A DNA stretch of 64,000 bases from a virus. Lineage: Duplodnaviria; Heunggongvirae; Uroviricota; Caudoviricetes. The notes beneath the pieces are model-generated. The model had not been told where the DNA came from and made no database searches. It saw only the letters and a list, made by a program, of their open reading frames with translations. This document shows positions 30,301-63,689 of the stretch, piece after piece. Both the position numbers and the translations under genes were made by a program. Positions within the stretch are counted from its first letter, which is position 1, and each line of letters begins with the position of its first letter. The DNA lies in the IMG/VR virus record IMGVR_UViG_3300008107_000002, one strand, 5' to 3'.

Positions 30301-33300
30301 GAAATTATTCTTAAAGAATTTTTATTAAGTAAATTTGCGTAAACTGTATTTTGAGAATTTTGTAAAAATAAATTTGCTGGATTTGTAAGTACTGCATTAC
30401 TTCTTATAACATTAAACTTATATAATGTTTGAGATACTTGGTCTCCAGCAGTTACGTCAATTACCACAGTAGTAGTTCCTGGAGGAGTCAATACTGGTTG
30501 ACTCCAAGTACCTGAAGTAACCAATAACCTCTGTACTCCCATTCTAGATTGACTATCAGCTGTAAATGGTTTTATTGATATAGCTTTAACATAAAATGGT
30601 AACTCAATAGTATAATCAGTTTTAGTAGAAGTAAACAATGATGTAAGTTTACCATTGCTTAAAATAATATTTGAAAGATAAGAGTTAGAACTTTTTGCTT
30701 TGACTACTGTTACGGTATAATTTTGAATAGTAGCATTGTCACCAGCCGTTACCCTAATCGTACTGGTAGTAACAGGATTAGGTAAATTGATGTAAGAAGA
30801 ATATTCTCCCGACAACACAATGTTTCCATTAATTCTTACAGTTGATTCATTGTTAGATTTGTATGGAGAAATTCTATATTTTGTAGCAGAACCGTCAACT
30901 GATAACGTATAGTTGTATACATTTTTGTTAAAAGCTGGTTTAAGTATTCCTATATCAGGTATCAAGTTTAACAAGTAAGCATCTGTGCTAGATCCAATGC
31001 CGGCCCTGTTTATAAAAATGTTGTAGCCTGTTATAGTTTCTTTACTAGGAGACTCAACTACTACTGGAATGTTTTGGTTCCCTACATATACTCTAAAATA
31101 TGGAGAATAAGTTCCAGGCTGAACAATAAAGTTATTGTTCATTAAAATTGTTGAATATATATCAGTGGGATCTGCTTTAATTCTTATTTGATCGGTTACA
31201 TATGGAAGATTAAGATAATACTCGTAAGTATTAGAATTAAACACAGGAGTAAATGAGCCAGGATCTACTACGAGATTATCTAAAGTAGAAACACCGCTAG
31301 CCAGTTTGGTAACATTAAGGGTATAAGTTTTTTGATATATTGGATTAGCGGCTATTACTTTAACTGTGATAACATTCAATCCGTTCCATACTCCGTTATT
31401 ATAATTTCCGGACAATGGGACTGATCTTGCTACTCCAGATGTTGCAGGTACATTATTAATAAGAAGTTGGGCGTTTTGATCGTTAGTAAATGCAGTAATT
31501 TCAGTATTGGCACTTGTACCAGATACTGTGTAACTGTACGATGTAATATCAGCATCGAAAACGGGGGAGAGTGTTCCTTCTCCCGGTATTAGATAAGATA
31601 AATTATTGTCATAGTTAGATTCTCTTAATGCATTTATAGTATAGGTAGTTGTGCTTTCCTGATTTTGAGAAATAACTTTAATTGTTATGGTGCTAACAGT
31701 TCCTACTGAAGTTGGTATATTAGTAGATGTAGTCCCAGACAAAATATTAACGTTATTAATAGCAATTGTACTAGTAGGATCTGAAGAAAAAGGTCTAATC
31801 TTAACACCGGTAGTTCTATACCCTATAGGAAGATTATATTGTGTAATAGAAGAATTAAACGCAGGAGTTAACGTTCCTCCAAACACAATAACATTTGACA
31901 GTGTTGATACGCTACTACCTTTTCGAGTAATTGTTAATGTATAAGTTTTTTGTACAGTACTGTTAGGAGAAGTAACTCTTATAGGAATAGAAGTAGTTCC
32001 TACTAAAATAGGAATAGGTTGACTGCTTGCACCGGATAATGTTGTAGCACCATTAATAGAAAGCCCAGCACTAGCATCCCAAGTATTTGCAGTTATTGAT
32101 ATTGTTTTAATATCATTATTAACTAGAGCAGAGTACGCAACTGTGCTAGATGAGAATGAAGGAATTAAGGAACCTTCTGCAAAAGTTAATGAAGATAAGT
32201 CAGCATTAGAACTTAAATCTCGTAAAACATTTACTCTATAATTGTGTTCAGTAGTGTTATCAGAAGATTTTATTTTGCCAGTTATAACATTAATGCCTGT
32301 GGATAGACCACTTAATGTATATTGTTGACCGCTAGGAGTAAGTACACCATTAAAATATAATTGAGACCCTGAGTCAATAACTGTTCCAGTTAAAGAAATA
32401 CCAGTTATTGAATTTGGAATAGTTACATTATAATAGAAAGTATTTTTGTTAAAGCTAGGTGTAAGTGTTCCAGTTGATACAGATAGATTAGTAAGTAATG
32501 AAACGTTGCTTAATCTTATTGCTGTAATATAATAAGTTTTTGTTGTTCCGTCTTGAGCCGTAACTTCGACACTGATGTTATTGTAACCGAAGCTTAATGG
32601 TACAATTCCAATTTGTCCAGATATAACCGTACTTGTATTAACTTTAACTGTCGCAAATGAATTTGCAACAGTTGGTACAATATATAAATTAGTGTCTGTT
32701 TCAGTGACTACAATAGTATAAGATGTTACTGTTGGAGTAAACACCGGCGAAAGAGATGACGGGCTTACTAAAAGTGAAGACAGATTGTTATTAGAACTTT
32801 TAAGCCTGTCAATTGTAATAATATAAGTTCCGGTAGTTTGGTATTGTGATGAAACACTTATTGTAGCAGTTGTTAGTCCAACAATTAATGGAATAACAGG
32901 CCCTGTGGTACCAGAAATTACTGTAGTGGTGTTAACTTTTATAAACGATGTATCGGTAGAAACACTAGGTGTAAAATTTACAGATGATACAGTGTTTGTT
33001 ATTGTTAAATTATAATTTAAAACATTAGAATTAAATGCCGGTGACAACGTTCCGCTACTAACGGTAAGATTAGATAGAGTGATGTTATTGTTGTCAGCAG
33101 TAATTGGTCCATAGAAGTTTAGGCCAACAATGTACGGAAAATACGGAACACCAGTTGATGTTTCTGATAAAAAATATGCGTATGTGCCTTCTGGGTATTC
33201 GGGTGTTCGACAGAACCTTCCGTTATACACATCTAGCGTTACTCCGGTAGTATTGCTCCATGCCCAGTCTTCCATGAATATACCTAGAGGGAAAGACGCG

Positions 33301-34130
33301 GTAAGAGCTGTTCCGCTAGGTATATTAACTGTTTTGTTAAGTGTAATTTGTACACCAACGATTTTCATAATTCGAACATCATTGGGTAATCCGCCGCCGG
33401 TAACACTCATTCCAAGACCAAGTCCAGCCGCACTATAAACTAATAATTGTGTAGATGAAGTTACAGTTCCATTTACAATTAGTGTTTTAGTTGGTGGTCG
33501 GTTAGCCTTATTAACAGGATAAAATCCCGAAACCATTCTTATTACGGTACTGGCAGTATTCAATGCGCTCGAATAACCGTACGGTCCATATATAGGATAT
33601 CCGTCTCTTGCCCATCCTATAATTTTGCTGTGGCCGTCTTGAGATCTATAACCTGCTTCCCAAGTACTATCGGTTATAGTTCCCCAAGCATTATTACTAA
33701 CAAATCTTCCATCTTTGTAATTGTATGCTCCACTTGATGTTACGGCACCGCCATACAGGTCTTCACCTTGGATCCCTGCTTCAACTGCGTTTAATGTCCA
33801 AGCAGTATTGTTAAGCCCGTTAACATTAATGCCTGAACTTGGTCCGTAAAGAATAATTCCTACAGAAGTAATACCAATTGGGGTACTGCCCCCAGTTGCA
33901 GGTTTGATAGTTGCGGCAATAGTTTTACCACCACGTACTGGCCAGGTAAAATTAAAACTTTGTGATGCTATTGAATTAGAATTCTGTGTATTTGGAAAAG
34001 TTCCAACAGATACAGTGCCAAGTAAATTAAGTGTAGTAATCGCCCAAGTGGTCGCAGTTGTACTATAGTTTACTGTTAATTGACCGCCGGCACCATTGCC
34101 TGAAAAAGAGGTGCTAGGATTAAACGCCAT
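27318..34130 (-). CDS. giant adhesin-like structural protein (2270 aa) with internal duplication, cadherin-like beta-sandwich repeats and putative Ig (He_PIG-like) domains
   Basis: 6.8 kb ORF; two copies of a module containing DGHSxxIGxAxDGYPIYGPYGY and RxCxTPEYPxGTYAYF; about 8 repeats of LSxLxVSxGTLxPxFxxxxxxYxxxV; GSLPNGLTLNTSTGVISG Ig-like segment. Confidence 0.85.
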   Translation of the reverse strand: MAFNPSTSFSGNGAGGQLTVNYSTTATTWAITTLNLLGTVSVGTFPNTQNSNSIASQSFNFTWPVRGGKTIAATIKPATGGSTPIGITSVGIILYGPSSGINVNGLNNTAWTLNAVEAGIQGEDLYGGAVTSSGAYNYKDGRFVSNNAWGTITDSTWEAGYRSQDGHSKIIGWARDGYPIYGPYGYSSALNTASTVIRMVSGFYPVNKANRPPTKTLIVNGTVTSSTQLLVYSAAGLGLGMSVTGGGLPNDVRIMKIVGVQITLNKTVNIPSGTALTASFPLGIFMEDWAWSNTTGVTLDVYNGRFCRTPEYPEGTYAYFLSETSTGVPYFPYIVGLNFYGPITADNNNITLSNLTVSSGTLSPAFNSNVLNYNLTITNTVSSVNFTPSVSTDTSFIKVNTTTVISGTTGPVIPLIVGLTTATISVSSQYQTTGTYIITIDRLKSSNNNLSSLLVSPSSLSPVFTPTVTSYTIVVTETDTNLYIVPTVANSFATVKVNTSTVISGQIGIVPLSFGYNNISVEVTAQDGTTKTYYITAIRLSNVSLLTNLSVSTGTLTPSFNKNTFYYNVTIPNSITGISLTGTVIDSGSQLYFNGVLTPSGQQYTLSGLSTGINVITGKIKSSDNTTEHNYRVNVLRDLSSNADLSSLTFAEGSLIPSFSSSTVAYSALVNNDIKTISITANTWDASAGLSINGATTLSGASSQPIPILVGTTSIPIRVTSPNSTVQKTYTLTITRKGSSVSTLSNVIVFGGTLTPAFNSSITQYNLPIGYRTTGVKIRPFSSDPTSTIAINNVNILSGTTSTNIPTSVGTVSTITIKVISQNQESTTTYTINALRESNYDNNLSYLIPGEGTLSPVFDADITSYSYTVSGTSANTEITAFTNDQNAQLLINNVPATSGVARSVPLSGNYNNGVWNGLNVITVKVIAANPIYQKTYTLNVTKLASGVSTLDNLVVDPGSFTPVFNSNTYEYYLNLPYVTDQIRIKADPTDIYSTILMNNNFIVQPGTYSPYFRVYVGNQNIPVVVESPSKETITGYNIFINRAGIGSSTDAYLLNLIPDIGILKPAFNKNVYNYTLSVDGSATKYRISPYKSNNESTVRINGNIVLSGEYSSYINLPNPVTTSTIRVTAGDNATIQNYTVTVVKAKSSNSYLSNIILSNGKLTSLFTSTKTDYTIELPFYVKAISIKPFTADSQSRMGVQRLLVTSGTWSQPVLTPPGTTTVVIDVTAGDQVSQTLYKFNVIRSNAVLTNPANLFLQNSQNTVYANLLNKNSLRIISKGRTTYVTSDTFPNSYIRFPVLDQKIDVIYPYRGGERVPAEVPIYRDATTNTVGITVVGIPIRNPRSTTVAGLNSSTWSLDANFNIKTMPRDPYSGGPDNTGAYYYLNDKFVTNNAWANTQGWLGDYTHDDGHSRVIGFAADGYPIYGPYGYAYPTSPLGGVKQMTSGYTTKILPNRPPSVEVRTQFFADSNTILLQSVTGLQVGMRIFAAGLAKELDTTILQINTTTIVVDRSVSISVDIPITAYWPNGAFVEDYVYSITTATLDIHNGRYCVTPEYPIGTYAYFMTNKNGVPAYPYVIGNTFFGNLSDQVVTNTVKPTWVTTQGLLPIVTELLPASITLSATGPNVRYQLINGSLPNGLTLNTSTGVISGVPTVVWLTDRSEFVIRAYNQYGVVDRSFMIDVLGPTPPRFITPGIRPAVGPSGEKYLINGQIVDFQFTATTDILGPGREITYHIADGDGQLPPGLVLTNDGHLYGQVKDNLTLFYQLASNGAFDEQGWDAAPFEHVSLQAIGSGPRFINKTYQFIITASNAAGTARQLYQIDVNDPSSDISKYPVAPQWLTPSDLGSIRANTKQVIQFEIHDCDPGTGNITFDWEQVNEDLPVLPQDMVLDKISGTMSGYLRYTPVYSSVYSFKVRVLKTSPITGITTFRDKNFTITIQGATISKMKFITDSNVGTLYQGQQSELSILALHDDPNIKVRYSLQSGSLPPGIGLTQDGALAGVVPYNTATTVATTYSFNVLAIDSNLGSQLVKNFKVQVLPYQGQKYTKILLHPLLSIKDRLYWDTFINDPSVFDFSLLYRPYDPAFGVQKVLEFVLEWGVQELYIAQYVNSLQNYFYRKRLYFGELKSAFATDDNGDKLYEVVYVELIDNLVNDSGVPINPVVQYGDTTIYPNSIDGMRGAIESIASSSDDLLPKFMRTVQDNTGVPLGRIICLPLCYCLPGNSQLIIRKIETYGIDFKLITFDLDRITVLNTKDNSSAKYLLFPKRGFLT

Positions 34131-41109: not shown

Positions 41110-41932
41110 TGTCGTATTCCGTAAGTAATGCACCGTCTCGTATTCGAGTTTGGGTGTTTCTACTATTTAGCAGGATTACAGCAAGCCGCCGTCCTTGATC
41201 TTTAACGATCATTACAAGGCATCCACCTGAGATTCTAATCCAACCTGTTTTACTTAACAAGACGTTGTGCGTGTTAGTAACTAATGAATTGGTAGTTTTA
41301 AAATCTATAAAATATGACTTCTTTTTTCCTTGAACTTGTATTTTTCCGGTAGATTTAGTTGAAAAATTACGTATATCATCGTAATTATATGCGGTACTAG
41401 TAAGTTTAATTAGATCAGTTGCCGTGCTTACATTATTAGGATCTAAACCAGTAGGGTCACTAAAATGTGAATTATACATCTGAAGATGAAACGCCTTTTG
41501 GTTCATTGCCTTTATTGCGGCATCAGTTCCTCCGGGATATAATTCTGCTAATAGTGCCGCCGCCGAATTATCGCTACTCATAAGAGAGAGTAGTAATAAA
41601 TCGGCCCTAGTAACAACTGTGCCTTTGGGCAATTTACTAGTTGTTCCGGTTGGTTTATGAAATACTATTTTTTCTGATAAATCTTGTTTGGCGTCAAGTA
41701 CTACAATAGCAGTCATCAACTTTGTTATTGATGCAATACTTCTTATTTCTTCTTTATTTTTTTCTGTAACAATTTCGCCTGTATCTATGTCTTGCACAAC
41801 ATAGCTAGTGGCGAGAATGTTATTTCGATTATTGTAAGATTTTTTTTGGTTAGCATGTACAGGCGCAGATAGAATAGCCGATATAATTAGGGCATTAATT
41901 ACGTTTTTCAACAATCTTATCAATAAGTCCAT
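41081..41932 (-). CDS. D-alanyl-D-alanine carboxypeptidase (peptidase S11, PBP5/6-like) with signal peptide
   Basis: SxxK (SITK), SxN (SSDN) and KTG (KTGWI) motifs in order; signal peptide [27 protein letters not shown] if the start is at 41932. Confidence 0.85.
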
Positions 41933-42482
41933 ATTCAAGGGTTTCCTGGGCACTCATAAATTTATCCCTTTCCATGTCCTGAATTAACTGCCCATATGTT
42001 TTACCCTTGCTATTATGTTTAACATAAATGTTGGTTAAATTTTCTTTCATTTTTAGGATCTCACGTACTTGGATTTCCATATCTGTAGCCTGTCCGCCTG
42101 CTCCGCCACTGGGCTGATGTATCATGTGACGAGCGTTGGGAAGCATATAACGTTTTCCTGGTGCACCTGCTTGTGCTAGTAGACTACCCATAGAACAGGC
42201 TTGACCCATAACATAGGTGCAAACATCTGGCTTGATAAACTGCATGGTATCATAGATGCTCATACCTGCTGTTACAACTCCACCGGGACTATTAATATAA
42301 AAATTGATATCCTTGTTGCTATCTTGGCTTTCAAGATGTAAAAACTGTGCAACAATAACATTGGCACTGTGATCATCAACTGGTCCATTAAGAAATACAA
42401 TTCGCTCATTGAGCAATCGACTATAAATGTCAAACGCACGTTCTCCTGTGCTTGTTTTTTCAATTACCATTGGAATTAACAT
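41895..42482 (-). CDS. clpP: ClpP serine protease subunit
   Basis: 195 aa; catalytic Ser context [10 protein letters not shown], His in MIHQP, Asp-containing C-terminal region; high similarity to bacterial ClpP throughout. Confidence 0.92.
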
Positions 42483-52190: not shown

Positions 52191-52382
52191 TTAATTTAAA
52201 CCAAAATGGGCTTTGATAGAAGAGATTGCAGAAGTCTCCTCGGCCGCCTCAAGAACAGTGATACATTCATTAATGCCCGATAAAAGCAGTCCAAACGTAT
52301 CAATCCCTGTTGTCGGATAAAGTCCATCAACCCTAACTTGGATCTGTTGCGCTTCGAATAGTTTTTTTAAATTTTCATTCAT
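52191..52382 (-). CDS. small hypothetical protein
   Basis: 63 aa ORF. Confidence 0.4.
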   Translation of the reverse strand: MNENLKKLFEAQQIQVRVDGLYPTTGIDTFGLLLSGINECITVLEAAEETSAISSIKAHFGLN

Positions 52383-52632
52383 TATTTTCTTCCTCTAGTT
52401 GATTCATGAATAGATTAAGTTGCTCAATTAAATTTTGACAACCTTTACGATTCATAGTAATTGTTGAAATACCAGTTTTAAAAGTTATACGACCTTCACT
52501 GGTTATTCCTATACTGTAGTATTCTTGTTCCGATTTTGGCGGTTCAATAAGAGGAACCGGAGCACGTTCTGGAAACGGGACTACGTTATAACCTTTAGCA
52601 CGTTCTTCTCGACTTTTAAACCAATTAAACAT
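52375..52632 (-). CDS. small hypothetical protein
   Basis: 85 aa ORF. Confidence 0.4.
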   Translation of the reverse strand: MFNWFKSREERAKGYNVVPFPERAPVPLIEPPKSEQEYYSIGITSEGRITFKTGISTITMNRKGCQNLIEQLNLFMNQLEEENNE

Positions 52633-52918
52633 CTTTAACTCCAGATTTCTTTTTTGCTAATTCTCGTTCGCATTGAGCAATGGCGGCGTCAAGCATGGCA
52701 GTTGTAATTTCTTTGGGATTCATTCCAAAATGCAGTTTAATTAAATCTACTCCCTGCCCGCGACTAATCATATCACGCAACATGGGATTCAATGCTATGC
52801 AACATTCCCTAACAATCAACTCGGCGAACTTTTCTATGAACTTTGTCTGCTTTTCCCAAGAATCACCCTGAGTTGTTTTAGCAGCCTCTTCCCAAAGTTT
52901 TTGAATTCGTTCGTTCAT
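52625..52918 (-). CDS. member 1 of small paralogous MNERIQ/KFAELIV protein family
   Basis: 97 aa; MNERIQKLWEE...KFAELIVRECC...LHFGMNPKE; shares a 32-nt identical DNA block with the copy at 60573-60604. Confidence 0.6.
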   Translation of the reverse strand: MNERIQKLWEEAAKTTQGDSWEKQTKFIEKFAELIVRECCIALNPMLRDMISRGQGVDLIKLHFGMNPKEITTAMLDAAIAQCERELAKKKSGVKDV

Positions 52919-53049: not shown

Positions 53050-53844
53050 TTACTTGGGCATCATCAATGCGTTGAAGTTACTTGGAACAACAATGGTCTG
53101 CACTTGTCCGTTCTTAATACCTTCACTGATGTTCAACATGGCCTGTGCCTGCATAAACGCAATTGACGCCCCTGAGTTGTTAGCCAATGCTGCCATACGA
53201 CGACTTTCAGCTTCGGCAGTCTTAACTTCAACTTCCTTCTGCTTCAATTCGTTCTTTGAACGAACCAGTGCGTTGGCACTCTCAACAACTGAGTCTGCTG
53301 GTACTACATTACGAATCAACACTTGGCTAATCATAATAGTACCGTCCAACTTTTCTTCTGCCAAGTTGCGAACGATTTCGTCTTGAATGAACTTTTCCAT
53401 TTCACCGCGATTGTCTGCCATATCTAGTGCTTCATACTTTCGTGCTGCCTTGTAGATAGCATTACGAGCATTTTGAACAATGTAGTTGTACATCACATAG
53501 GTGTCGCCTTTGAACTCTGCGTGGAAAGCCTTGTTCTTTGTAGCATACAGTTCTGATACTTGTTGTGGGTTGATGTTGTAGACAACCACAGCATCCAAGT
53601 CTTTCATCGTCGAGTTATCTTTGGCCACTGGAGTCATATTCTCCAATGAGACATTAACATCCTTGATAGGAAATGTCAGTACGTCACCGATCAACACCTG
53701 ATTGAACGAACCCGGAAGTAGTTCTCCAGGCTGTACTTGTTTGTCAAAGCCAACTCGAACACCAACTTCACCAGTTTCAATACGAGTACAACCTGTAGCA
53801 AGAACAGCGGCGGCAAGAACGGAGAGAGTCAAAATACGTTTCAT
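53050..53844 (-). CDS. SPFH/band-7 (prohibitin/HflKC/stomatin-like) lipoprotein
   Basis: signal peptide with lipobox MKRILTLSVLAAAVLATGC; SPFH-like core then Ala/Glu/Lys-rich coiled-coil (KQKEVEVKTAEAESRRMAALA); an alternative upstream start at 53925 would add a TM helix. Confidence 0.75.
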   Translation of the reverse strand: MKRILTLSVLAAAVLATGCTRIETGEVGVRVGFDKQVQPGELLPGSFNQVLIGDVLTFPIKDVNVSLENMTPVAKDNSTMKDLDAVVVYNINPQQVSELYATKNKAFHAEFKGDTYVMYNYIVQNARNAIYKAARKYEALDMADNRGEMEKFIQDEIVRNLAEEKLDGTIMISQVLIRNVVPADSVVESANALVRSKNELKQKEVEVKTAEAESRRMAALANNSGASIAFMQAQAMLNISEGIKNGQVQTIVVPSNFNALMMPK

Positions 53845-53940
53845 TTTAAATAATACCTTGTGAAAAAAGAAAAAAGCAAACAACGAAACCCAAAGCAAAA
53901 TACAAAGGGCGAAGATAACGATCATTAACCATATTAATCC

Positions 53941-54117: not shown

Positions 54118-54914
54118 ATATTAGTTGTACCCCAACTAGTTGGGCTGTTATAACTGTTGGCATTTTCCTGCACAGGTGCAGTAAATGCTTCTTCAGGTTC
54201 GACACCCAATTCACCGATTACTTCATAGCGGCAAGCACGACCTTTAGCTTCGTTGTAGTCAGTTGGAATGCTCACAACATCACGTGGATTAATCTTAACA
54301 ATAACAGTACGATCACCACCAAAGCACGACAAGTAACTCATACCGCAGAAGTGCAGACCTGTTGAGCAGGTTTGATCCTTGTTGTCGTCTACCTTGTTAC
54401 GTTCCATTTCAACTACACGACCAACGGAGTTATCCATTGTACCGCTATGCACATCCATAAAGTTATCACGAACTTTCTTGTAAGCAAGGAAATACCCGTC
54501 TGGAGTAATTGGCAAGTTATTCTTCTCCAAGAAGCCATACAGTTCGGTCACTGCTCGCTTGCTAGGGTTAGCATACAGGTTTTCCATAAAGTTAACCATT
54601 GGTTCAACTGGAAAGCCTTCTTGCAACATTTCAATCATTCGACGGGCAAGTCCAGTATTAAGGACCTCACCTTTCCAGAACAATGTTTCGCCTTGGATGC
54701 TAACATTGCCAGCACCATAGTTCAAAACAACCTTTTTAGGTTCGATGACATCTTTAACAGTATCCCAATCTCCAGCCTTAATAGCTTCTAATACCTTGGG
54801 ATAGGTAATATGTGTTTTAGAAATAGTGTGTGACTTATTTCCAATAACGACAACAACATTGCTGCCTTGAATGATAAACGGATAGCTCATTTTATACGCC
54901 TTTCTTTGCGTCAA
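54114..54914 (-). CDS. rIIB: rIIB-like protein
   Basis: 266 aa ORF immediately downstream of, and overlapping, rIIA as in T4-like phages; no independent motif. Confidence 0.55.
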   Translation of the reverse strand: MTQRKAYKMSYPFIIQGSNVVVVIGNKSHTISKTHITYPKVLEAIKAGDWDTVKDVIEPKKVVLNYGAGNVSIQGETLFWKGEVLNTGLARRMIEMLQEGFPVEPMVNFMENLYANPSKRAVTELYGFLEKNNLPITPDGYFLAYKKVRDNFMDVHSGTMDNSVGRVVEMERNKVDDNKDQTCSTGLHFCGMSYLSCFGGDRTVIVKINPRDVVSIPTDYNEAKGRACRYEVIGELGVEPEEAFTAPVQENANSYNSPTSWGTTNI

Positions 54915-57069
54915 TTAAATTTACATATTCGGCAATATCGCTTGCTTCAACGCGGTAAGTGCTCAGACTTTTCAATAACGGATACCTACGATTCACGTCA
55001 TTAAGTTTTTGTTGATATTTTGTAACCAATGCATCCGGGCTAATATTAGCGTTAGGAGCAAATCGGCGGAACAAACGATCAATATTATATGTGTAACCTT
55101 TAAACTTTTCAACACCTTTAAGTTCATTTACAATTTCTGCATACGGACTCTTGGCATCGATTAGCGTTATTACACTACTATTATACTCTAAAATGTCTGC
55201 ATGGTCAAGTTTTGATTTAACCAAACTCATCAACAATTTACTTGTATCTTTAGCAGTTAACAATGAGGCAATGTAATCTTCAAAGTTGACCCAGTTTGAC
55301 AACTTCTTAATCTCTTCAATGTCGCCTTTACGAACACCGTAGATATCACCTTTGAACAAATCGGGCAAAGCCTTAACATCGTCATACAATTCCTTACCAC
55401 TGGCATAACCTTTGGCACTTTGCATACTGAACCCGCTTAACGGAACATAGTAAAATGTAACAGCGGCATCAAATGCATCAGCCTTACCAGCGTCACGCCA
55501 TACCATGTCATCATCACTACGACGATATCCACCACCACCACGACGTACCAATTGCAGAATTGTTACATTCTTGCCCATGTTCTCACGTTCACGTTGTTGC
55601 AAGGTACTTGCGGCAAAACGTCGAGCAGTGGGCGGTTCTTGGATAGCGGCAAAGAATGCTTGAGTATTCATTGCCTTGTTCTTGTCTACCTTCTCCAAGA
55701 TCCAGATAGCACGGCTGTACACATCACACCCAACTTCTTTATAATGATATCGGGCACGTTCGCCGGCACCTGTCTTTAGGTCGTTGATGATAAAGTGGCA
55801 AGTGTCGTCTACTGGAATGTGCCATTCTTGCCATGTGATGTAATGTCCATTGGCATTTTTGGCACGATTGTCAGCATACTCTGTGACGCTCTTACCATTG
55901 CTCACTGTTTTAGTATGACGAGCTTGTTGTAACAGACGAATCTGAATGTTCCAGTTTGTAGCAAGGTCTTCAACTTTGAAGTCAAAACGAGCCATTTGGC
56001 TGTACTGTTTAGTATTGTAAGTTGGCAAGTTAGTGTCGAGCGCATACTTGGCCACAGCCGCAGTCCACAACTTATGCTCTTTCTTCTTAAACAAGAACAC
56101 AGCACGATCCCACAGATTAGGGATAGCATCTGCTTCTCGAGCAATCACAACTGCCAATGCCGTATTGAGTTGTTCCAACTTGGCTTTAATAGCCGCAATG
56201 GTTGAAGGAATGTAGCTCAGACCTTCACGTGACGCTTGGAAGTCCAACTCGCCGATAGCAAAGTGCATTTCAAGTCCGCAAGTCAACAAGTTTCGCACAT
56301 CCTGGTCAATGCTTTGATCAGCGGCAGGGATTTCAATAGGATAAGCAATATTACCCATGACAGCCACGCTACCACGACGACCTTCGTTCTTGTAACTATG
56401 CACACCGGGAATGATGTCGCGGCTTTCGTAATCAATCAGATCAAACACAAAGTCATTATTACCGTTGACAACAGGCTTAAGAACAAAGTGACGATATACA
56501 CTACGAGCTTCTTGACGGAACTTGTCAAAGTCATAACGGTCGTTGACTGAAAACTTAACTTCAACACCCGTTGGCTCGTCGGTAGCCTCTTGCATCATTA
56601 ATGCAATGCTCGGGACTCCGTCACCGTTAATGAAAGCAGAGTAAATGCCCTTAACGCCGTTTTGGATAGCAGTTACAGTAAAATTGTCAGTATAACTAAA
56701 AGGGCTTTTGGATCCCAATCCAAGAGCTCCGATAAATTCGTTGCTGGCTGTTTTTGTACTTTCAAAGTACGTGGTGTAGATTTGTGTGACTTGTTTATGT
56801 GAGAGGCCAGTCCCATAGTCTCGAATAGAAAACCAAGGTTCTAAAGTGTTTGGGAGATGAACATCAAAAGGGGTATCCTTCTTGTCCGCGGCCGCATGTG
56901 AGTCAACGGCATTACAAGAAAGTTCACGTACAATAGCACGGATCTTGTTAGCATACAAGCCCGAACTCAAAATACTGAATGCTTTGGCACTGTTACGAAT
57001 ACGGAATTCGCCAATTTCACTGACATTAGAAACAATGGCTTCGTTGACTGGAGCATTGTTAAGAATCAT
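54892..57069 (-). CDS. rIIA: rIIA-like protein (GHKL ATPase-fold N-terminal domain)
   Basis: 725 aa (same length as T4 rIIA); NSAKAFSILSSGLYANKIRAIVRELSCNAVDSH and NEFIGALGLGSKSPFSYTDNF match rIIA Bergerat-fold boxes. Confidence 0.8.
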   Translation of the reverse strand: MILNNAPVNEAIVSNVSEIGEFRIRNSAKAFSILSSGLYANKIRAIVRELSCNAVDSHAAADKKDTPFDVHLPNTLEPWFSIRDYGTGLSHKQVTQIYTTYFESTKTASNEFIGALGLGSKSPFSYTDNFTVTAIQNGVKGIYSAFINGDGVPSIALMMQEATDEPTGVEVKFSVNDRYDFDKFRQEARSVYRHFVLKPVVNGNNDFVFDLIDYESRDIIPGVHSYKNEGRRGSVAVMGNIAYPIEIPAADQSIDQDVRNLLTCGLEMHFAIGELDFQASREGLSYIPSTIAAIKAKLEQLNTALAVVIAREADAIPNLWDRAVFLFKKKEHKLWTAAVAKYALDTNLPTYNTKQYSQMARFDFKVEDLATNWNIQIRLLQQARHTKTVSNGKSVTEYADNRAKNANGHYITWQEWHIPVDDTCHFIINDLKTGAGERARYHYKEVGCDVYSRAIWILEKVDKNKAMNTQAFFAAIQEPPTARRFAASTLQQRERENMGKNVTILQLVRRGGGGYRRSDDDMVWRDAGKADAFDAAVTFYYVPLSGFSMQSAKGYASGKELYDDVKALPDLFKGDIYGVRKGDIEEIKKLSNWVNFEDYIASLLTAKDTSKLLMSLVKSKLDHADILEYNSSVITLIDAKSPYAEIVNELKGVEKFKGYTYNIDRLFRRFAPNANISPDALVTKYQQKLNDVNRRYPLLKSLSTYRVEASDIAEYVNLIDAKKGV

Positions 57070-57611: not shown

Positions 57612-58253
57612 TTATACTTTTAGTATAGTGTCTACAAAATTTAAAAGCAATGGATAATGGCGGCCTTGATGATATTTTCCCTGCATCCAGCTATAACTCT
57701 CGTACCAGTGTTTTTCACTTTCTGGATGACAACCAATTAGCCCAATTCTGTTTTGTATTATCGCCATTGGGTCACCGTTTGCATAGGTTGCAATGGTTTG
57801 ATATTTTCCCTTACCTACCAACGCACAGCCGTCATAAAAATACATCTGCTCTTGCCTACCATTCCATGTTACATCTAAATTTTTAGCATGTGGTCTGTGT
57901 GTATCAGTTTTTGGGCGTGTTATATATTGCACAGCATCTACACCTTCTAACATATCTAGGTAATGCTGTCCTGCCCAATAGGCACCCATACAAATTCCTA
58001 GATACGCTCCTCCGTGTTGCACAAACTCTTTTATTTTATCGCCATTTTCACCTAACAAGTAATCAAAACGACCTGCATCACCAAATCCTCCGGGGATACA
58101 AACAAGATCCACGTCGTCAAAAAAATCCCGCTCAAGTTCATGGCGGGTAAAAATTTTAAAATTATATTTGGATCCTAGGGCTCGCATAATTCCATTACCG
58201 CTCTGAACTGAACAGTAAGGTTGATGCAGGAATAGTGCAATGCGACCTTTCAT
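57612..58253 (-). CDS. class I glutamine-amidotransferase-like (BPL_N / GATase3-like) protein
   Basis: 213 aa; LVCIPGGFGD and nucleophile-elbow-like GAYLGICMGAY. Confidence 0.5.
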   Translation of the reverse strand: MKGRIALFLHQPYCSVQSGNGIMRALGSKYNFKIFTRHELERDFFDDVDLVCIPGGFGDAGRFDYLLGENGDKIKEFVQHGGAYLGICMGAYWAGQHYLDMLEGVDAVQYITRPKTDTHRPHAKNLDVTWNGRQEQMYFYDGCALVGKGKYQTIATYANGDPMAIIQNRIGLIGCHPESEKHWYESYSWMQGKYHQGRHYPLLLNFVDTILKV

Positions 58254-59091: not shown

Positions 59092-59114
59092 AAAAAAAGG
59101 GCCAGTGGCCCTTA
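59092..59114 (-). terminator. rho-independent terminator (minus strand) after 59138..59356
   Basis: hairpin aagggcc-act-ggccctt followed on the minus strand by TTTTTTT (plus-strand aaaaaaa at 59092-59098). Confidence 0.5.
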
Positions 59115-59137: not shown

Positions 59138-59356
59138 TTATTCTTTAATTCCGAGGGTTTCTGGACTATGATTTAATCTATTACCTCTTTCATCTGAATA
59201 GAATACAGCATCCTTATCTGTTATTGTAACAGTTAAGTCGCAATGTAACAGGTCATAATCTGTAAATTCAAAATCATCTGTGTAAACACGAAATCGATAT
59301 ACCCCGTCCCCACACCAAATTAAATGTCCTTCTACGCCCTCTGCGGATAATTTCAT
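59138..59356 (-). CDS. small hypothetical protein
   Basis: 72 aa ORF. Confidence 0.45.
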   Translation of the reverse strand: MKLSAEGVEGHLIWCGDGVYRFRVYTDDFEFTDYDLLHCDLTVTITDKDAVFYSDERGNRLNHSPETLGIKE

Positions 59357-59595
59357 TTGCGTAATCCTTTAATTTCTTTATATTTAACACGTATAAAATT
59401 GTGCCAAGTCTTATCAATTTTTATGGGCAAGTCTAAATGTATAGATACCATAGGGCCTTCTAATTCATTACGCATGTTGTCAGTATAGACAGTACCAACA
59501 TAAGGAATCTTTTGGTATATCCCCTCAACTCTATCTCCAACATTATATTTGGGTTTAGGTCGATGTTCGGCAAAGTATTCAGCAAGGGTACTCAT
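59353..59595 (-). CDS. small hypothetical protein
   Basis: 80 aa ORF in ATGA-coupled chain. Confidence 0.45.
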   Translation of the reverse strand: MSTLAEYFAEHRPKPKYNVGDRVEGIYQKIPYVGTVYTDNMRNELEGPMVSIHLDLPIKIDKTWHNFIRVKYKEIKGLRK

Positions 59596-59996
59596 ATGTC
59601 TTCTAGCCGAGCGTAACGGTCAACTGGTTCACCATTTAATGCCTTCCACACTTCTTCTTTTGTGGTATACAGTAAATGATGTCTTTCTAAACAGTATCTA
59701 CGATCCTCGTCATCCATTTTATACCATTCTGTAACTGCGGTATAACTGCCATATGCATCCGATGGCATGCAATCGTTCATCCACCCTACTAACCTTTTTA
59801 GTGCAGAAATATTATTTGAAGGATGACTACGTTGTACTGCGGCCGCAAAATCATTCGCCAGCACGGCAGTAAAAAAACCGCCTGGATCAAATCCAAAGAT
59901 TAGGTAGTTGTACATAGGATCGGCAAAGTCTTTGTCAACTTCCCATTTACTAAAAGTTGCTCGTAGCCGCCCTTTACTGTATTCAGTTAGTTTCAT
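59592..59996 (-). CDS. hypothetical protein
   Basis: 134 aa ORF in ATGA-coupled chain. Confidence 0.5.
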   Translation of the reverse strand: MKLTEYSKGRLRATFSKWEVDKDFADPMYNYLIFGFDPGGFFTAVLANDFAAAVQRSHPSNNISALKRLVGWMNDCMPSDAYGSYTAVTEWYKMDDEDRRYCLERHHLLYTTKEEVWKALNGEPVDRYARLEDI

Positions 59997-60337
59997 TTTT
60001 TCATCTCCGCAAGTTTACCAAATCCAAATTCTAGTTCAATCCACGGACGATCCGCATCATCACTCCACGCTCGGTCACCAGAAACATAAGCACGGGTAGC
60101 AACTTCGTCTAAAACTTTCGCCACAATCAACTCGGCGAACTTTTTTGTATCAAAGTGTAACTGCCCGTCTACTAACGCACCATCTACACGATGACTCCAA
60201 CATTGCTTTTCTAATTCTTCGATTTTGTTGTTTGACATAGATTTAATTTTGTAAGCATATGGCCCTTTACTACAGACATGTGCAACGTCAAAGTCTGGAT
60301 AAGTATCTCCACAATGTATACATGTAAGTCGATTCAT
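59993..60337 (-). CDS. Zn-ribbon + MNxKIExLEKQ/KFAELIV family member 2 (fused)
   Basis: likely starts at MNRLTCIHCGDTYPDFDVAHVC (ATGA overlap with the upstream small ORF); internal MSNNKIEELEKQ...KKFAELIVAK. Confidence 0.55.
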   Translation of the reverse strand: MNRLTCIHCGDTYPDFDVAHVCSKGPYAYKIKSMSNNKIEELEKQCWSHRVDGALVDGQLHFDTKKFAELIVAKVLDEVATRAYVSGDRAWSDDADRPWIELEFGFGKLAEMKK

Positions 60338-60492
60338 AGTCCTACTTGCTTTCCAAAAATACAATACACCTCAAACCATTTAGAGGGAGGATTCTCTAAC
60401 CAATATGGATTCTCACGGAATGTGATTTCCCAATCTCTTGACCATTGAAAATGCCTAGTGCCAAATCTAATGTTAAACCAAAGGTTGCTCAT
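60335..60492 (-). CDS. small Trp-rich ORF (52 aa) bridging family members by ATGA overlaps
   Basis: ATG overlaps the stop of 60489..60698; stop overlaps the MNRL ATG. Confidence 0.3.
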
Positions 60493-60698
60493 TCTTCAAC
60501 TCCGAAATGCCTTTTAATTTGATATTGAATATCTAAAGGATGTGCTTGACTGAATTTAGAACCAACTTCGGCACATTCCCTAACAATCAACTCGGCGAAC
60601 TTTTTACGATTGAAACTTTCAGTAGTAGAAGTACCGTTTAGTCCACACTTCACTGTCTCCGTCGCCTGTCTTTCAAGTTGTTGAATTCGTTCATTCAT
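60489..60698 (-). CDS. family member 3 of MNERIQ/KFAELIV small proteins
   Basis: 69 aa; MNERIQQLERQ...KKFAELIVRECAEVG...HFGVEE*. Confidence 0.6.
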   Translation of the reverse strand: MNERIQQLERQATETVKCGLNGTSTTESFNRKKFAELIVRECAEVGSKFSQAHPLDIQYQIKRHFGVEE

Positions 60699-60952
60699 TC
60701 TTCAACTCCGAAATGTTGTTTGATACGCTGATTGATAGCTTGAGCAGTGTGTATTGGTTCAACAGTATTAGTATTATTCTTGCCAACCCAAGTAGAACAC
60801 GCCATACATTTCCGAATAATCAACAGGGCGAACTTTTCCAACTCTGGGTACGGAGTATTCTCAAACGTGCCAGCGCCATATTCGTGGGCGTGTTCTTCAA
60901 GTATCTTAACCAATCCAGCCTGTTCAGCAAGTTCTTGAATTTGTTTGTTCAT
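60695..60952 (-). CDS. family member 4 of MNxxIQ/KFAxLIx small proteins
   Basis: 85 aa from MNKQIQELAEQ (ATGA overlap with the upstream Zn-ribbon ORF); ...KFALLIIRKCMACSTW...HFGVEE*. Confidence 0.6.
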   Translation of the reverse strand: MNKQIQELAEQAGLVKILEEHAHEYGAGTFENTPYPELEKFALLIIRKCMACSTWVGKNNTNTVEPIHTAQAINQRIKQHFGVEE

Positions 60953-61191
60953 AGCCGCTCTCCGCAATGTGGACACTTTTTAGCACTGGCATTACGCATT
61001 TCTTTCAGTGTACGATTTAGTTTACGTGCATCGCTTAATAGACGACGGATAGCGTTCTTATTTCTATCCCCTTTACTCTTGCTCAATTCTTCCTTAAGGT
61101 GCAACTTCATTTTATTCAGACGACCCTCAAAGATTTCAATAAAGCCCGTTATACCCAGACTAGAGCTTGCCGAGGTACTACTTGTGTTCAT
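60949..61191 (-). CDS. small C-terminal zinc-ribbon protein
   Basis: 80 aa; MNTSSTSASSS..., charged helix, C-terminal KKCPHCGERL; ATGA-coupled on both sides. Confidence 0.5.
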   Translation of the reverse strand: MNTSSTSASSSLGITGFIEIFEGRLNKMKLHLKEELSKSKGDRNKNAIRRLLSDARKLNRTLKEMRNASAKKCPHCGERL

Positions 61192-61382
61192 TCATCAACT
61201 CCGAAATGTTTTCCAATCTTATCATGGATCAACCATGTGTGTTTACATTCTTCTGTGTCGGGGGTATGATACTTGGCAACAGCCATACATTTCTTCACAA
61301 TCAACTCGGCGAATTTTATTTCTTGTTCAGTTGCTTGTGTGCCATAAACCTGTTCAGCCAGTTGCTTGATTTTTTGATTCAT
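61188..61382 (-). CDS. family member 5 of MNQKIKQLAEQ/KFAELIV small proteins
   Basis: 64 aa from MNQKIKQLAEQ...IKFAELIVKKCMAVAKYHTPDTEECKHTW...HFGVDE*. Confidence 0.55.
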   Translation of the reverse strand: MNQKIKQLAEQVYGTQATEQEIKFAELIVKKCMAVAKYHTPDTEECKHTWLIHDKIGKHFGVDE

Positions 61383-61602
61383 TGGTTTTATCCAAACTTG
61401 GCGTGATTCTTTCCAATTCATCTGCATGTGCAAAGCGTTGCGGGGGATTCAAATTCCAACTGTCTGCAGAGAATATCTTAACAGGTTTCCAATATTTGTG
61501 AATAATATTGTTGATGACAACAATAGCCGCAACAACAACTATAAAGCCTAACGCTGTTAAAATACTGCCTGCTAAAAATACTGCCGCCTGATCCATATCC
61601 AT
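61354..61602 (-). CDS. small membrane protein
   Basis: 82 aa; N-terminal helix AAVFLAGSILTALGFIVVVAAIVVI. Confidence 0.35.
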   Translation of the reverse strand: MDMDQAAVFLAGSILTALGFIVVVAAIVVINNIIHKYWKPVKIFSADSWNLNPPQRFAHADELERITPSLDKTNESKNQATG

Positions 61603-61861: not shown

Positions 61862-63145
61862 TTACTTGTTTATTATAATGTCATTTCCGATAAAATTGCA
61901 AGAAGTTTTTATTTCATTTGTTAAAGAATCGATTCCTTTTTGTATAAGTCCTGCAGTATTTGGATAGTGACCGGCAAACTTGTAGTCAAGTAACAACGGT
62001 TTTTCCTTTTCTTCAAAATATCTATTTTTGAATAGTAATTCAAAATCAGCAGGGGGTTCTCCGTACTGCTCTAGAAAATTAATAACTTCTCGAACTTCAT
62101 CAAAGAAAGATGATTTTATAAATTTAAATGTTGGCTCAGTATTATCATTATTGCATTCAATGTAGTTAAAATGTGATACATTAGAATGTGTTTGTGTATA
62201 TGGATTCCTATAAGACCCTAATGCTAGGGTGTCAAGAGACATAGTATGGAGATATTGAGGATCCATATGATGGACAAAACTCATATACCTTTCTTTGTCT
62301 TTTAAATTTTTATTAACTAATCTTAAACATTTTAAATTTTTAATTCTGTCAAAAATCGTTTCAGTTAAACATTCTTTAATGTTAATATATTGATGTTTCC
62401 CATCAAAATTTTCAATCAAATAATCACCGTTTTGTATGTAGGGATTTTTTAAAACTGCGTCAAGGGTCATTGGACGTAATTCTTTATTTTGATAAATTGC
62501 CTGAACACTTATTTCATCTGGACATATATTTTCAAATGTTAATTTTAAATCGTTTTCTAAAATTCCTATGTCAGTGTGATCTTGATTCATGTGTGCAATG
62601 ATATCTACTAGAATATTCATATTCCGTTTTCGAATCTCTTTGGCCAGCTCAAAGATTCGTTCTTGAGTTTCTGGAACACGTTTTTGTTTAATTAATGTTT
62701 TTCTATCAAAGGATTGCAGACATAGAATTGCGTTATCAAAATGATATTCTTCTAGCACATCTAATAGTTCGGGCGTCCAGTACGCTGGATGAATTTCAAA
62801 AGTTTTTACACCTTTTGATTCCTTAAATCCCGGCAACAAATTTAAAATATTTTTTAATGTTTCCGGTTTCATCATTGACGGAGTACCGCCACCAAAGAAC
62901 CAGTTGCCTATTAAATTATTTTTTTCTTCTAAAATGGGACGATAAAGATCGATAATGTTTGGCAGGTAATTATTATAATATTCTGAATAAGTTAATTCAT
63001 CTTTTAATAAAACACCTGCGTAGATGCAGTACTTACAAATTGATGGACAAAATGGACTATGAACGTAGACGCTTATAGGGTTTGTACTGCTTGCCCATTT
63101 ATTTTTGATGTATTCAAATTCTACTGGGTCGTATCTTTTATGCAT
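61862..63145 (-). CDS. radical SAM enzyme, HemN/HemW-like (class C-like; no SPASM cluster)
   Basis: 427 aa; SVYVHSPFCPSICKYCIY = CX3CX2C near N-terminus as in HemN-like rSAMs; GGGTPS-like FFGGGTPSMM SAM-binding motif. Confidence 0.8.
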   Translation of the reverse strand: MHKRYDPVEFEYIKNKWASSTNPISVYVHSPFCPSICKYCIYAGVLLKDELTYSEYYNNYLPNIIDLYRPILEEKNNLIGNWFFGGGTPSMMKPETLKNILNLLPGFKESKGVKTFEIHPAYWTPELLDVLEEYHFDNAILCLQSFDRKTLIKQKRVPETQERIFELAKEIRKRNMNILVDIIAHMNQDHTDIGILENDLKLTFENICPDEISVQAIYQNKELRPMTLDAVLKNPYIQNGDYLIENFDGKHQYINIKECLTETIFDRIKNLKCLRLVNKNLKDKERYMSFVHHMDPQYLHTMSLDTLALGSYRNPYTQTHSNVSHFNYIECNNDNTEPTFKFIKSSFFDEVREVINFLEQYGEPPADFELLFKNRYFEEKEKPLLLDYKFAGHYPNTAGLIQKGIDSLTNEIKTSCNFIGNDIIINK

Positions 63146-63182: not shown

Positions 63183-63689
63183 TTAACTATTCAATACTTT
63201 AGCAACACTATTCATAACACTGGCAATACGTCCAATATCACGTAGGTTCTCTACTGTGTAGCCTTCCGTCTTGAGTGTTTCATAATGTGCCTTAACACAG
63301 AAGTGACACTTGCCAACAATACTTGCGGCAAGACTGAATGCTTCGAAGTTGGCTTTAGTTGTACCGCCGTGGCTGGCAATGGCATTCATGCGTAACTGTG
63401 CCGGCAATCCTTTTAATGCTGGATCATCAGCCATTTCAACATATGGGTACCACACATTGTTGGTCGCCATAATTGACGCCGCTGTCATCGCCGGTTCAGC
63501 ATACACCGGATTGTCCGCAAGCATAATGCTCAACAACTTACCATTTCCTGTTGCCGCTAATGCCGCTACAGCACAGCCCATTGCTACATCAGCATCAAGA
63601 GTGCTACGCAATAACACAGCATCAATGTTTAACCGTGTATCTTTGGCATAATCTGGTAATGCTGGTTTAACTACATCAATAAAACTCAT
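63183..63689 (-). CDS. AhpD-like / carboxymuconolactone-decarboxylase-family protein
   Basis: 168 aa; AhpD core motif CxxCxxxH (CHFCVKAH) near the C-terminus. Confidence 0.7.
   Translation of the reverse strand: MSFIDVVKPALPDYAKDTRLNIDAVLLRSTLDADVAMGCAVAALAATGNGKLLSIMLADNPVYAEPAMTAASIMATNNVWYPYVEMADDPALKGLPAQLRMNAIASHGGTTKANFEAFSLAASIVGKCHFCVKAHYETLKTEGYTVENLRDIGRIASVMNSVAKVLNS

Follow-up and report, generated by a model that had tools for sequence, protein, structure and literature searches.

A multi-copy family of small proteins from uncultured phages with conserved coding blocks and apparently exchangeable cassettes

The 64,000-nucleotide stretch of the Caudoviricetes record IMGVR_UViG_3300008107_000002 from IMG/VR (the window) encodes six members, m1 to m6, of a multi-copy family of small proteins in which three conserved blocks alternate with two variable cassettes. 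The family is real and undescribed, and its significance is high. We favor, with a probability of about 60%, the explanation that this is a mosaic family whose genes diversify by recombination in the blocks and whose products are early-expressed binders. The structural and evolutionary part of this description is very probable. The evolutionary mechanism is well supported; the biological role is only inferred. An earlier note, made from the sequence alone, had recognized five of the genes, four of them in a translationally coupled array, as an undescribed multi-copy family that combines variable middles with conservation at the ends and in the core; this description holds, with no database match found. 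Coordinates below refer to the window, and its features lie on the minus strand unless stated otherwise.

A profile hidden Markov model (HMM) of the family was built from 505 relatives, with all window sequences left out, and 200 composition-preserving shuffles of each member were used as the control. The five open reading frames (ORFs) named in the earlier note are present at 52625..52918 (m1, 97 residues), 59993..60337 (m2, a divergent member of 114 residues), 60489..60698 (m3, 69 residues), 60695..60952 (m4, 85 residues), and 61188..61382 (m5, 64 residues). They score 58.0, 26.1, 67.1, 87.8, and 61.3 bits, respectively, while the best shuffle of each gives only 5.2–10.7 bits (≤5.7 bits for m2). 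Thus, the shared motifs are significant compared with shuffled sequences (26.1–87.8 bits vs ≤10.7). A divergent sixth member, m6 (52191..52382, 63 residues, ending IKAHFGLN), was missing from the earlier note; it was found with E = 1.3e-4 in an ORF scan of the window and loci L001–L005, and scores 19.5 bits against ≤7.8 bits for its shuffles. A scan of the 64-kb window with the family profile gave no further members beyond these six.

The family proteins have about 65–115 residues (median 79), are mildly acidic (median isoelectric point (pI) 5.0, net charge −5), and contain at least one cysteine in 98% of members. The N block is MNERIxELAEQAG, the central block is EKFAELIVREC, and the C block is IKxHFGVEE, followed directly by the stop codon. 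Between them lie cassette V1, of 9–44 residues (median 23), and cassette V2, of 11–43 residues (median 27), and each occurs in hundreds of types that are mutually unalignable. In the window, m4 combines the commonest V1 and V2 types of the sample, and m5, with the blocks MNQKIKQLAEQV, KFAELIVKKC, and IGKHFGVDE, has a V2 type common to five relatives. The conserved leader and core that had been proposed are real as shared blocks, although the core is not invariant, since it reads KFALLIIRKC in m4 and KFAELIVAKV in m2. Likewise, the statement that most members end in HFGV(E/D)E is true only of m3, m4, and m5; m1 runs on for 32 residues after HFGM, with an extension of the same type as in the relative P0115, and m2 ends in EFGFGKLAEMKK.

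The AlphaFold2 model of m4 has a mean predicted local distance difference test (pLDDT) score of 82.5, with four helices at residues 3–12, 14–24, 36–59, and 66–81. The model of m3 (pLDDT 85.7) has a helix at 3–12, a β-hairpin at 13–29, and helices at 31–48 and 54–65. Every block is helical in both models, and it is V1 that switches, from a helix and loop in m4 to the hairpin in m3. The near-invariant residues, I5, L8, and A12 in the N block, F41, L44, I45, and C49 in the central block, and I77, F81, and V83 in the C block, have the spacing of a hydrophobic helix face, and these hydrophobic positions are also kept in the divergent m2 and m6. From the predicted block helices and the hydrophobic spacing, we infer a small helical scaffold, the shared core of which would be made by the blocks.

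Clustering of the cassettes of 490 complete members gave 273 V1 clusters and 243 V2 clusters. Type 0, the most frequent V1, is combined with 40 different V2 types, and the most frequent V2, also numbered type 0, with 49 different V1 types. In 12 cases, two V1 types have at least two V2 types in common, forming a four-gamete rectangle. At the nucleotide level, m4 is 93.4% identical to genes in L109–L111 over exactly its 258 nucleotides, and the flanking genes there are different. The other genes common to the window and L109 are ClpP, at 68.6% identity, and two small ORFs, at 73% and 75%. An L001 gene with a different V1 matches the V2 half of m4 (60691-60840) at 90.7% identity, and an L004 gene with a different V2 matches the V1 half (60828-60952) at 91.2%. 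Both tracts stop in or just past the central block of m4, EKFALLIIRKC (60806..60838), where the two halves join. For m3, the tract 60489-60604, which comprises V2 and the C block, is 98.3% identical to L098; its central block, KKFAELIVREC, is at 60573..60605. The segment 52632-52837 of m1 is 92.7% identical to L021, and 60122-60232 of m2 is 77–85% identical to family genes in L007, L019, L071, and L080. Three members, m2, m3, and m5, share the run TTCGCCGAGTTGATTGT exactly. Furthermore, dozens of loci match the window only at the central block, of about 32 nucleotides (90–100% identity), or at the junction of C and N blocks, of about 45 nucleotides. Tracts that are 90–98% identical and end in or next to the blocks indicate recent transfer of complete genes and of half genes between otherwise diverged phages. 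Such exchange also takes place among paralogues, and lateral transfer of the family is much faster than that of the rest of the genome. The mechanism of exchange suggested by these tracts is homologous recombination within the blocks.

Some relatives have unusual arrangements. P0134 (154 residues) has two family domains in tandem, P0249 (116 residues) has two copies of the central block, and in P0136 (313 residues) an unrelated N-terminal region of 250 residues is joined at the central block to V2 and the C half. These fusions could be either products of recombination or assembly chimeras.

Within a cassette type, the ratio of nonsynonymous to synonymous differences (pN/pS) is 0.17–0.23. The cassettes are therefore constrained protein sequence and not filler. 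The middles of the proteins had been described as fast-diversifying; they are indeed variable, but by replacement of whole cassettes rather than by point mutation, with purifying selection within each type. In the targets of diversity-generating retroelements (DGRs), the variable region keeps a constant length, and its differences from a template repeat are adenine-templated substitutions. This pattern is not seen here, with V1 of 9–44 residues, V2 of 11–43 residues, and unalignable types, although no search for a reverse transcriptase was made. A Pfam match of the type 0 V1 cassette to JmjN (E = 0.005 in 33 members) is weak and was judged to be spurious.

The synonymous codons of the blocks are nearly fixed, against local codon usage. 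R4 is CGA in 92% of the family (local background 14%), A42 is GCC in 81% (23%), E43 is GAG in 87% (25%), L44 is TTG in 84% (25%), G82 is GGA in 96% (24%), and V83 is GTT in 93% (36%), and the third codon positions of the blocks are about as conserved as the first and second. Retrieval bias can be excluded as the origin of this codon bias, since it persists in 80 secondary members that were found only by the protein HMM. For pairs of genes with unrelated cassettes, pS of the blocks is 0.33–0.53, compared with 0.63–0.77 at similar pN for ClpP, SPFH, and AhpD genes of the same contigs. RNA structure was rejected as the cause, as the folds of the junctions are no more stable than those of shuffles (z = −0.67 to +2.0), and the suspected pairing between N and central blocks breaks down when 244 sequences are compared, with at most five consecutive positions well paired. 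We read the conservation of the blocks as ongoing exchange and homogenization, that is, concerted evolution, in which the blocks would provide the homology.

The ends of the genes also contain signals for translation. The C-block consensus, CAT TTC GGA GTT GAA GAA TGA, contains GGAG, followed after 7 nucleotides by an ATG that overlaps the TGA stop, and the family genes start with ATGAAC, so that an upstream stop can overlap. An ORF of at least 35 codons is overlapped downstream at ATGA in 79% of the unique family genes, and an upstream ORF in 66%. About three quarters of the overlapped downstream genes have no match to a crude family motif. Both gene ends thus act as standard connectors, carrying the coupling signals for whatever gene comes next, and therefore a family gene can drop into a coupled chain and still couple to its neighbors. 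One such connector in the window is at 60663..60724, where the C block of m4 (CATTTCGGAGTTGAAGAATGA) meets the N block of m3 and GGAG lies 7 nucleotides before the overlapping ATG.

The chain in which m2 to m5 are found is exact in the sequence, as the earlier note had it, with 4-nucleotide overlaps and no break from 61191 down to 59353. Its order is m5, an 80-residue ORF, m4, m3, a 52-residue ORF, m2, a 134-residue ORF, and finally ORFs of 80 and 72 residues, with ATGA overlaps at 61188-61191, 60949-60952, 60695-60698, 60489-60492, 60334-60337, 59993-59996, 59592-59595, and 59353-59356. A candidate σ70-type promoter, TTGCAA-18-TATAAT, lies upstream of the chain at 61872..61901 and is a consensus match only (10/12). 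A strong hairpin resembling an intrinsic terminator, with a 7-bp stem of which five pairs are GC and a following T-run, closes the chain at 59097..59113.

Several points weigh against our reading. The shared core is proposed from the predicted block helices and the hydrophobic spacing, and the placing of V1 and V2 in the scaffold is likewise tentative. The sample of relatives is skewed toward m4-like sequences, because m4 was the query. A shared V2 cassette has 82% identical codons, and the blocks have 79%. As the synonymous conservation of the cassette equals that of the blocks, the DNA conservation may largely reflect recent ancestry or exchange and not selection for recombination sites, and block-specific nucleotide selection was rejected as the sole cause. 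In larger samples, pS is 0.44–0.58 for cassettes and 0.24–0.43 for blocks. Finally, of 29 genes that have no coupled successor, 27 still encode G82 with GGA, so the Shine–Dalgarno explanation of the fixed codons is incomplete.

The family might instead consist of selfish recombining cassettes that persist mainly by molecular drive through their copy-prone connectors and contribute little or nothing to infection. This is what one might conclude from the 90–98% identity of family segments between phages whose other shared genes are 69–75% identical, from the conservation of the blocks at synonymous sites, and from the copy number, which varies widely (1 to 10 per 12 kb). A GIY-YIG-like gene (about 108 residues, with the motif YMLxxxxxxxYIGxT) that occurs within 6 kb of the arrays in 19 loci, for example at 3063-3587 in L056 and at 73-531 in L093, fits such drive as well, and it is possible that it acts as a homing endonuclease in local gene conversion. 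However, purifying selection acts on the protein sequence of the cassettes, the folds are confidently predicted, and hundreds of copies retain intact frames and coupling signals. Mobility and usefulness can, moreover, coexist. We consider it unlikely that the family is purely selfish.

The family is large, and it has been found only in metagenomic sequences. A word-indexed search with m4 gave 614 proteins, all of them labeled hypothetical and all metagenomic. When 1.84 billion cluster representatives were searched exhaustively with the profile, 6,077 clusters (50% identity) reached E ≤ 1e-3 and 526 reached E ≤ 1e-10. At least 260 stretches in IMG/VR are confirmed to carry the family. Among 185,579 species genomes there were 11 matches, all contigs of metagenome-assembled genomes and several of them named after lakes (Erken, La Plata). 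The phage contigs with the family are all uncultured and apparently come from fresh water. No isolate phage among 50,697 GenBank phage records was found to carry it by tblastn and blastn; the only matches were to two Manatee Spring metagenomic phages, and both were weak (E = 0.1 and 3). The window itself has no nucleotide match in the same records. The genes are usually in arrays: 70 of 85 loci have two or more copies, and up to 10, in the 6 kb or so to each side, always on one strand.

No significant match to Pfam, PHROGs, or PADLOC was obtained with 76 members, nor to NCBIfam with m4, and no described anti-defense or defense-associated family in these four collections matched by sequence. 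The PDB gave no match by sequence profile and no informative fold, the fold matches being generic helical bundles only, and the motifs have no match in the full-text literature. Its absence from cultured phages makes the family invisible to Pfam and PHROGs.

The earlier note had also suggested that the array might encode precursors of ribosomally synthesized and post-translationally modified peptides (RiPPs), which would fit an adjacent gene for a HemN-like radical S-adenosylmethionine (SAM) protein. In such a reading, the N block would be the leader, the cassettes would be cores, and the radical SAM protein, encoded at 61862..63145, would be the modifying enzyme. The radical SAM gene is about 0.5 kb upstream of the array in the same orientation, and the presence of cysteine in 98% of members would suit such a role. 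In cyanobactin-type RiPP precursors, conserved recognition sequences flank hypervariable core cassettes, and the conserved flanks and hypervariable inserts of the family superficially recall them; both have near-identical DNA flanks around the cassettes, making a natural combinatorial library. However, a tblastn search found a homologue of the radical SAM protein in none of the 124 other family-bearing loci, and we reject the RiPP reading on this ground. Unbiased clustering of neighbors gave no recurrent enzyme beside the family beyond replication genes; the most frequent neighbors, GIY-YIG-like, DNA ligase, and 5′–3′ exonuclease genes, are present in at most 19 loci. Near-identical family genes are found in differing neighborhoods, with DNA ligase, 5′–3′ exonuclease, or queuosine genes. 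Unlike the cyanobactin precursors, the family has no associated processing or modifying enzymes, its cassettes of 9–44 residues would lie inside a predicted folded domain, and its genes are phage early genes. The confident fold prediction (pLDDT 82–86), with a helix for each block, does not look like a leader with an unstructured core, and the C terminus of the family is conserved, not variable. The radical SAM protein itself fits HemN-type models over only its first 220 residues or so, far below the cut-offs. A RiPP array is thus most improbable. The best score of that protein with a HemN, HemW, or HemZ model is 70 bits, against a cut-off of 504. An AhpD-like gene at 63183..63689 adjoins it, encoding a protein with 98% amino acid identity to one in L040, and AhpD is present in four of the 124 family-bearing loci.

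The ORFs between the family genes of the chain had been described as alternating zinc ribbons, and this is largely wrong. The 80-residue ORF at 60949..61191 is coiled-coil-like and has a single C-terminal CPHCGERL knuckle; it is the only interleaved ORF with a CxxC motif. The 52-residue ORF at 60334..60492 has one cysteine. A two-knuckle zinc site with four ligands is absent from both, and Pfam ribbon matches are below threshold. Four ligands (C6, C9, H20, and C22) are found only at the N terminus of m2, where the reported fusion of a CCHC ribbon is real and is also seen in P0057, P0082, P0111, and L099; the ribbon segment of m2 (60254-60316) is 89% identical to the ribbon–family fusion of L099. 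This mini-ribbon (CxxCG...D.AHxCGP, at 60254..60337 in the window) is a movable module, joined either to family members or to unrelated small proteins, with examples at 5091-5378 in L030, 9305-9811 in L036, and 2896-3267 in L099.

The recurrent fusion of the mini-ribbon, together with the early-gene context, might indicate that the proteins bind nucleic acids or modulate transcription, for example as binders of RNA polymerase or the nucleoid, like other T4 early proteins. We think this quite unlikely, as the proteins are acidic, the ribbon occurs in a minority of members only and also on unrelated proteins, and the fold matches do not go beyond the generic helical bundles.

Four perfect σ70 promoters (TTGACA-17-TATAAT, 12/12) are found on the minus strand within 5.5 kb, at 57599-57571, 57129-57101, 54021-53993, and 52189-52161, where the number expected by chance is estimated to be well under one. 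From these promoters, which are far above chance, we infer that the region is a block of early genes read by the host RNA polymerase.

This context also bears on the relation to the internal proteins of T4. T4 IPI, IPII, and IPIII are small hypervariable accessory proteins with a shared N-terminal capsid-targeting sequence, and IPI* is an anti-restriction factor. The T4 capsid-targeting sequence is MKTYQEFIAE, and cleavage occurs after L/I-x-E. In the N block, I5-K-E7 and L8-A-E10 fit the T4 prohead-protease site, which we take to be a resemblance of motifs and not homology. The family proteins might accordingly be packaged in the virion, with the N block (ELAE|QAG) acting like the capsid-targeting sequence and the variable parts injected to act against host defenses, as for IPI*. 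The two groups are alike in having a conserved N terminus, of about 10 residues in the T4 proteins, with an L/I-x-E motif, and the T4 internal-protein loci are likewise hypervariable. The window phage also has a T4-type DNA polymerase, with 50% identity to that of the Sinorhizobium jumbo phage Phosso and about 42% to those of Rak2/GAP32-like phages. However, the family genes lie amid replication and early genes behind σ70-type promoters, not among head genes. The family has two more blocks, central and C, without counterpart in the T4 internal proteins, and no sequence similarity or homology was detected. The family also occurs well beyond T4-like genomes, including contigs of 30–60 kb, and an apparent truncated relative (a DNA match only, E = 0.1) is in a circular genome of 43.8 kb that looks unlike T4. 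Packaging in the virion is thus very unlikely.

The window encodes a full-length ClpA-like AAA+ unfoldase at 11282..13549 (TIGR02639, 877 bits, covering positions 3–733 of 734) and a bona fide ClpP at 41895..42482 (NF001368, 307 bits vs a cut-off of 249), and together these would form a ClpAP protease of the phage's own. The family proteins might then be adaptors or substrates of this protease, the scaffold docking on ClpA or ClpP while V1 and V2 recruit host proteins for degradation. ClpP is near family genes in nine of 125 loci, but no ClpP is within reach in the other 116, and ClpA is near the family in none. The ClpP-bearing loci are mutually related, so their association with the family may be mere shared ancestry. 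The family has no similarity to the adaptors ClpS, SspB, or MecA. We therefore reject the adaptor idea, which is highly unlikely with ClpP in only nine of 125 loci and ClpA in none.

We prefer the reading that the family proteins are intracellular binders. The proteins are taken to be cytoplasmic and are probably expressed early; no secretion signal is evident in them, as judged by eye only. On the invariant scaffold, V1 and V2 would be displayed as mutually independent determinants of specificity, with which the proteins would bind or inhibit variable targets of the host or of competing phages. Features that bear on this are the small size of the proteins, their high and variable copy number, and the occasional fusion of a small zinc ribbon. 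The proposal that they are early-expressed binders or inhibitors, with V1 and V2 setting the target in host takeover, anti-defense, or inter-phage competition, is a tentative one that has somewhat less than an even chance of being right. A role in anti-defense or host takeover would agree with both the early-promoter context and the evolutionary dynamics seen in the sequences.

A more speculative extension, which we regard as possible but doubtful, is that the family is a natural combinatorial library of mini-binders kept by uncultured freshwater phages, with one three-helix scaffold, two exchangeable cassettes, and coding connectors, and that it provides a repertoire against host defenses that is generated by recombination at the level of the population. 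In this extension, the connectors would have a triple role, as the core of the fold, as homology arms for exchange between co-infecting phages, and as the ribosome-binding and ATGA coupling signal. In early operons, the family genes would then behave as plug-and-play units.

The closest mechanistic parallel is the gp38 adhesin of T2/T6-type phages, in which conserved glycine-rich motifs (GRMs), thought to be the structural core, separate hypervariable segments (HVSs) (PMC3157838; Tetart et al. 1998 cited there). Recombination between GRMs swaps the HVSs, and with them specificity, between phages, and in the model quoted there the HVSs are presented as ω loops (PMC3157838). The likeness is one of mechanism only, in that V1 and V2 of the family combine freely and the homology tracts end in or next to conserved blocks. 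There is no relation of sequence or fold, and the blocks are predicted amphipathic helices, not glycine-rich. Whereas gp38 is a virion adhesin encoded at the tail-fiber locus, the family consists of multi-copy, cytoplasmic-type proteins of 65–115 residues in early-gene chains, and its connectors also encode translational coupling. No glycine-rich motif, tail-fiber locus, or Pfam or PHROG tail match was found for the family.

The promoter-early stem-loops (PeSLs) of the hyperplastic regions of T4-type phages are non-coding units of a promoter and a terminator between genes (PMC2839356, PMC4122927). They flank small accessory ORFs, and recombination at them shuffles modules and allows horizontal transfer (PMC2839356, PMC4122927). 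The family, too, has repeated conserved DNA elements that carry expression signals. However, its repeats are coding, being the first 13, middle 11, and last 9 codons of the gene itself; shuffling also occurs inside the gene, and the ATGA overlaps leave no intergenic space. No promoter and terminator pairs are found between array members; such non-coding units are lacking because the genes overlap.

In polymorphic toxins, recombination replaces a variable module on a conserved part, from cassette copies elsewhere (PMC3482391), and the diversity of the family likewise comes from recombinational replacement of a variable module. The polymorphic toxins are large and secreted, with C-terminal toxin domains and immunity genes (PMC3482391), whereas the family proteins are tiny and have two internal cassettes, no toxin domains, and no immunity partner. 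Motif-anchored shuffling of cassettes in phage accessory proteins is already known. The family differs in that the recombination anchors are the coding blocks of an approximately 80-residue protein itself, and that these blocks are also the presumed core of the fold and carry the coupling signals.

The remaining genes of the chain recur with the family elsewhere. The 80-residue ORF at 60949..61191, ATGA-coupled on both sides, has homologues in 12 family-bearing loci and belongs to a separate family of small coiled-coil-like proteins of about 75–80 residues (L034, L100, L104, L111, L113). All five distinct homologue sequences listed for it end in CPHCG(E/G)xL, right before an ATGA-coupled gene. 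The 52-residue ORF has homologues with 85–87% amino acid identity in L013 and L124. The 134-residue ORF (59592..59996) has homologues beside family members in L065, L085, L073, and L098, and the last two genes of the chain (59138..59595), of 80 and 72 residues and both ATGA-coupled, have homologues in nine and six family-bearing loci, respectively. An ORF of 218 residues on the plus strand, at 60713..61369, is antisense to m4, the 80-residue ORF, and m5, and a comparable antisense ORF is opposite family genes in 14 other loci, where the reversed central block reads NNQLGELF; this ORF is almost certainly an artifact.

Of the long ORFs of the window (at least 150 residues), 51 of 55 are on the minus strand. 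Directly upstream of m1 is an SPFH/Band7 (stomatin-like) gene at 53050..53925, and an SPFH or stomatin-like gene also adjoins family genes in L021, L029, L031, L051, L059, L082, and MW202796 (L125, 2562-2948). A 725-residue protein with an HSP90/sacsin-like ATPase N-domain is encoded at 54892..57069, and a class-I glutamine amidotransferase-like protein is encoded upstream of it at 57612..58253; both are unusual for phage early regions. Farther away, an ORF of 2,270 residues at 27318..34130 lies in a stretch of low GC content (0.35), where the GC skew is about zero or positive, compared with about −0.1 elsewhere.

The family comprises at least 6,077 clusters at 50% identity, with as many as 10 copies in 12 kb, and ranks among the larger phage protein families that lack annotation. 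Its sequences suggest that small phage accessory proteins can diversify by intragenic exchange of cassettes at conserved, nucleotide-level connectors, which also serve to couple translation, with point mutation not the main route. Cassette exchange in the family would extend the logic of the gp38 adhesins and the PeSL elements to cytoplasmic early proteins, and it would be, if the more speculative library reading is correct, a phage counterpart to cassette-based antigenic variation. The origin of hundreds of unalignable cassettes beside blocks that are unsaturated at synonymous sites can now be tested. If the cassettes are specificity elements, the family would be a naturally validated miniprotein scaffold, and it would be a source of candidate inhibitors of defense and housekeeping proteins of freshwater bacteria.

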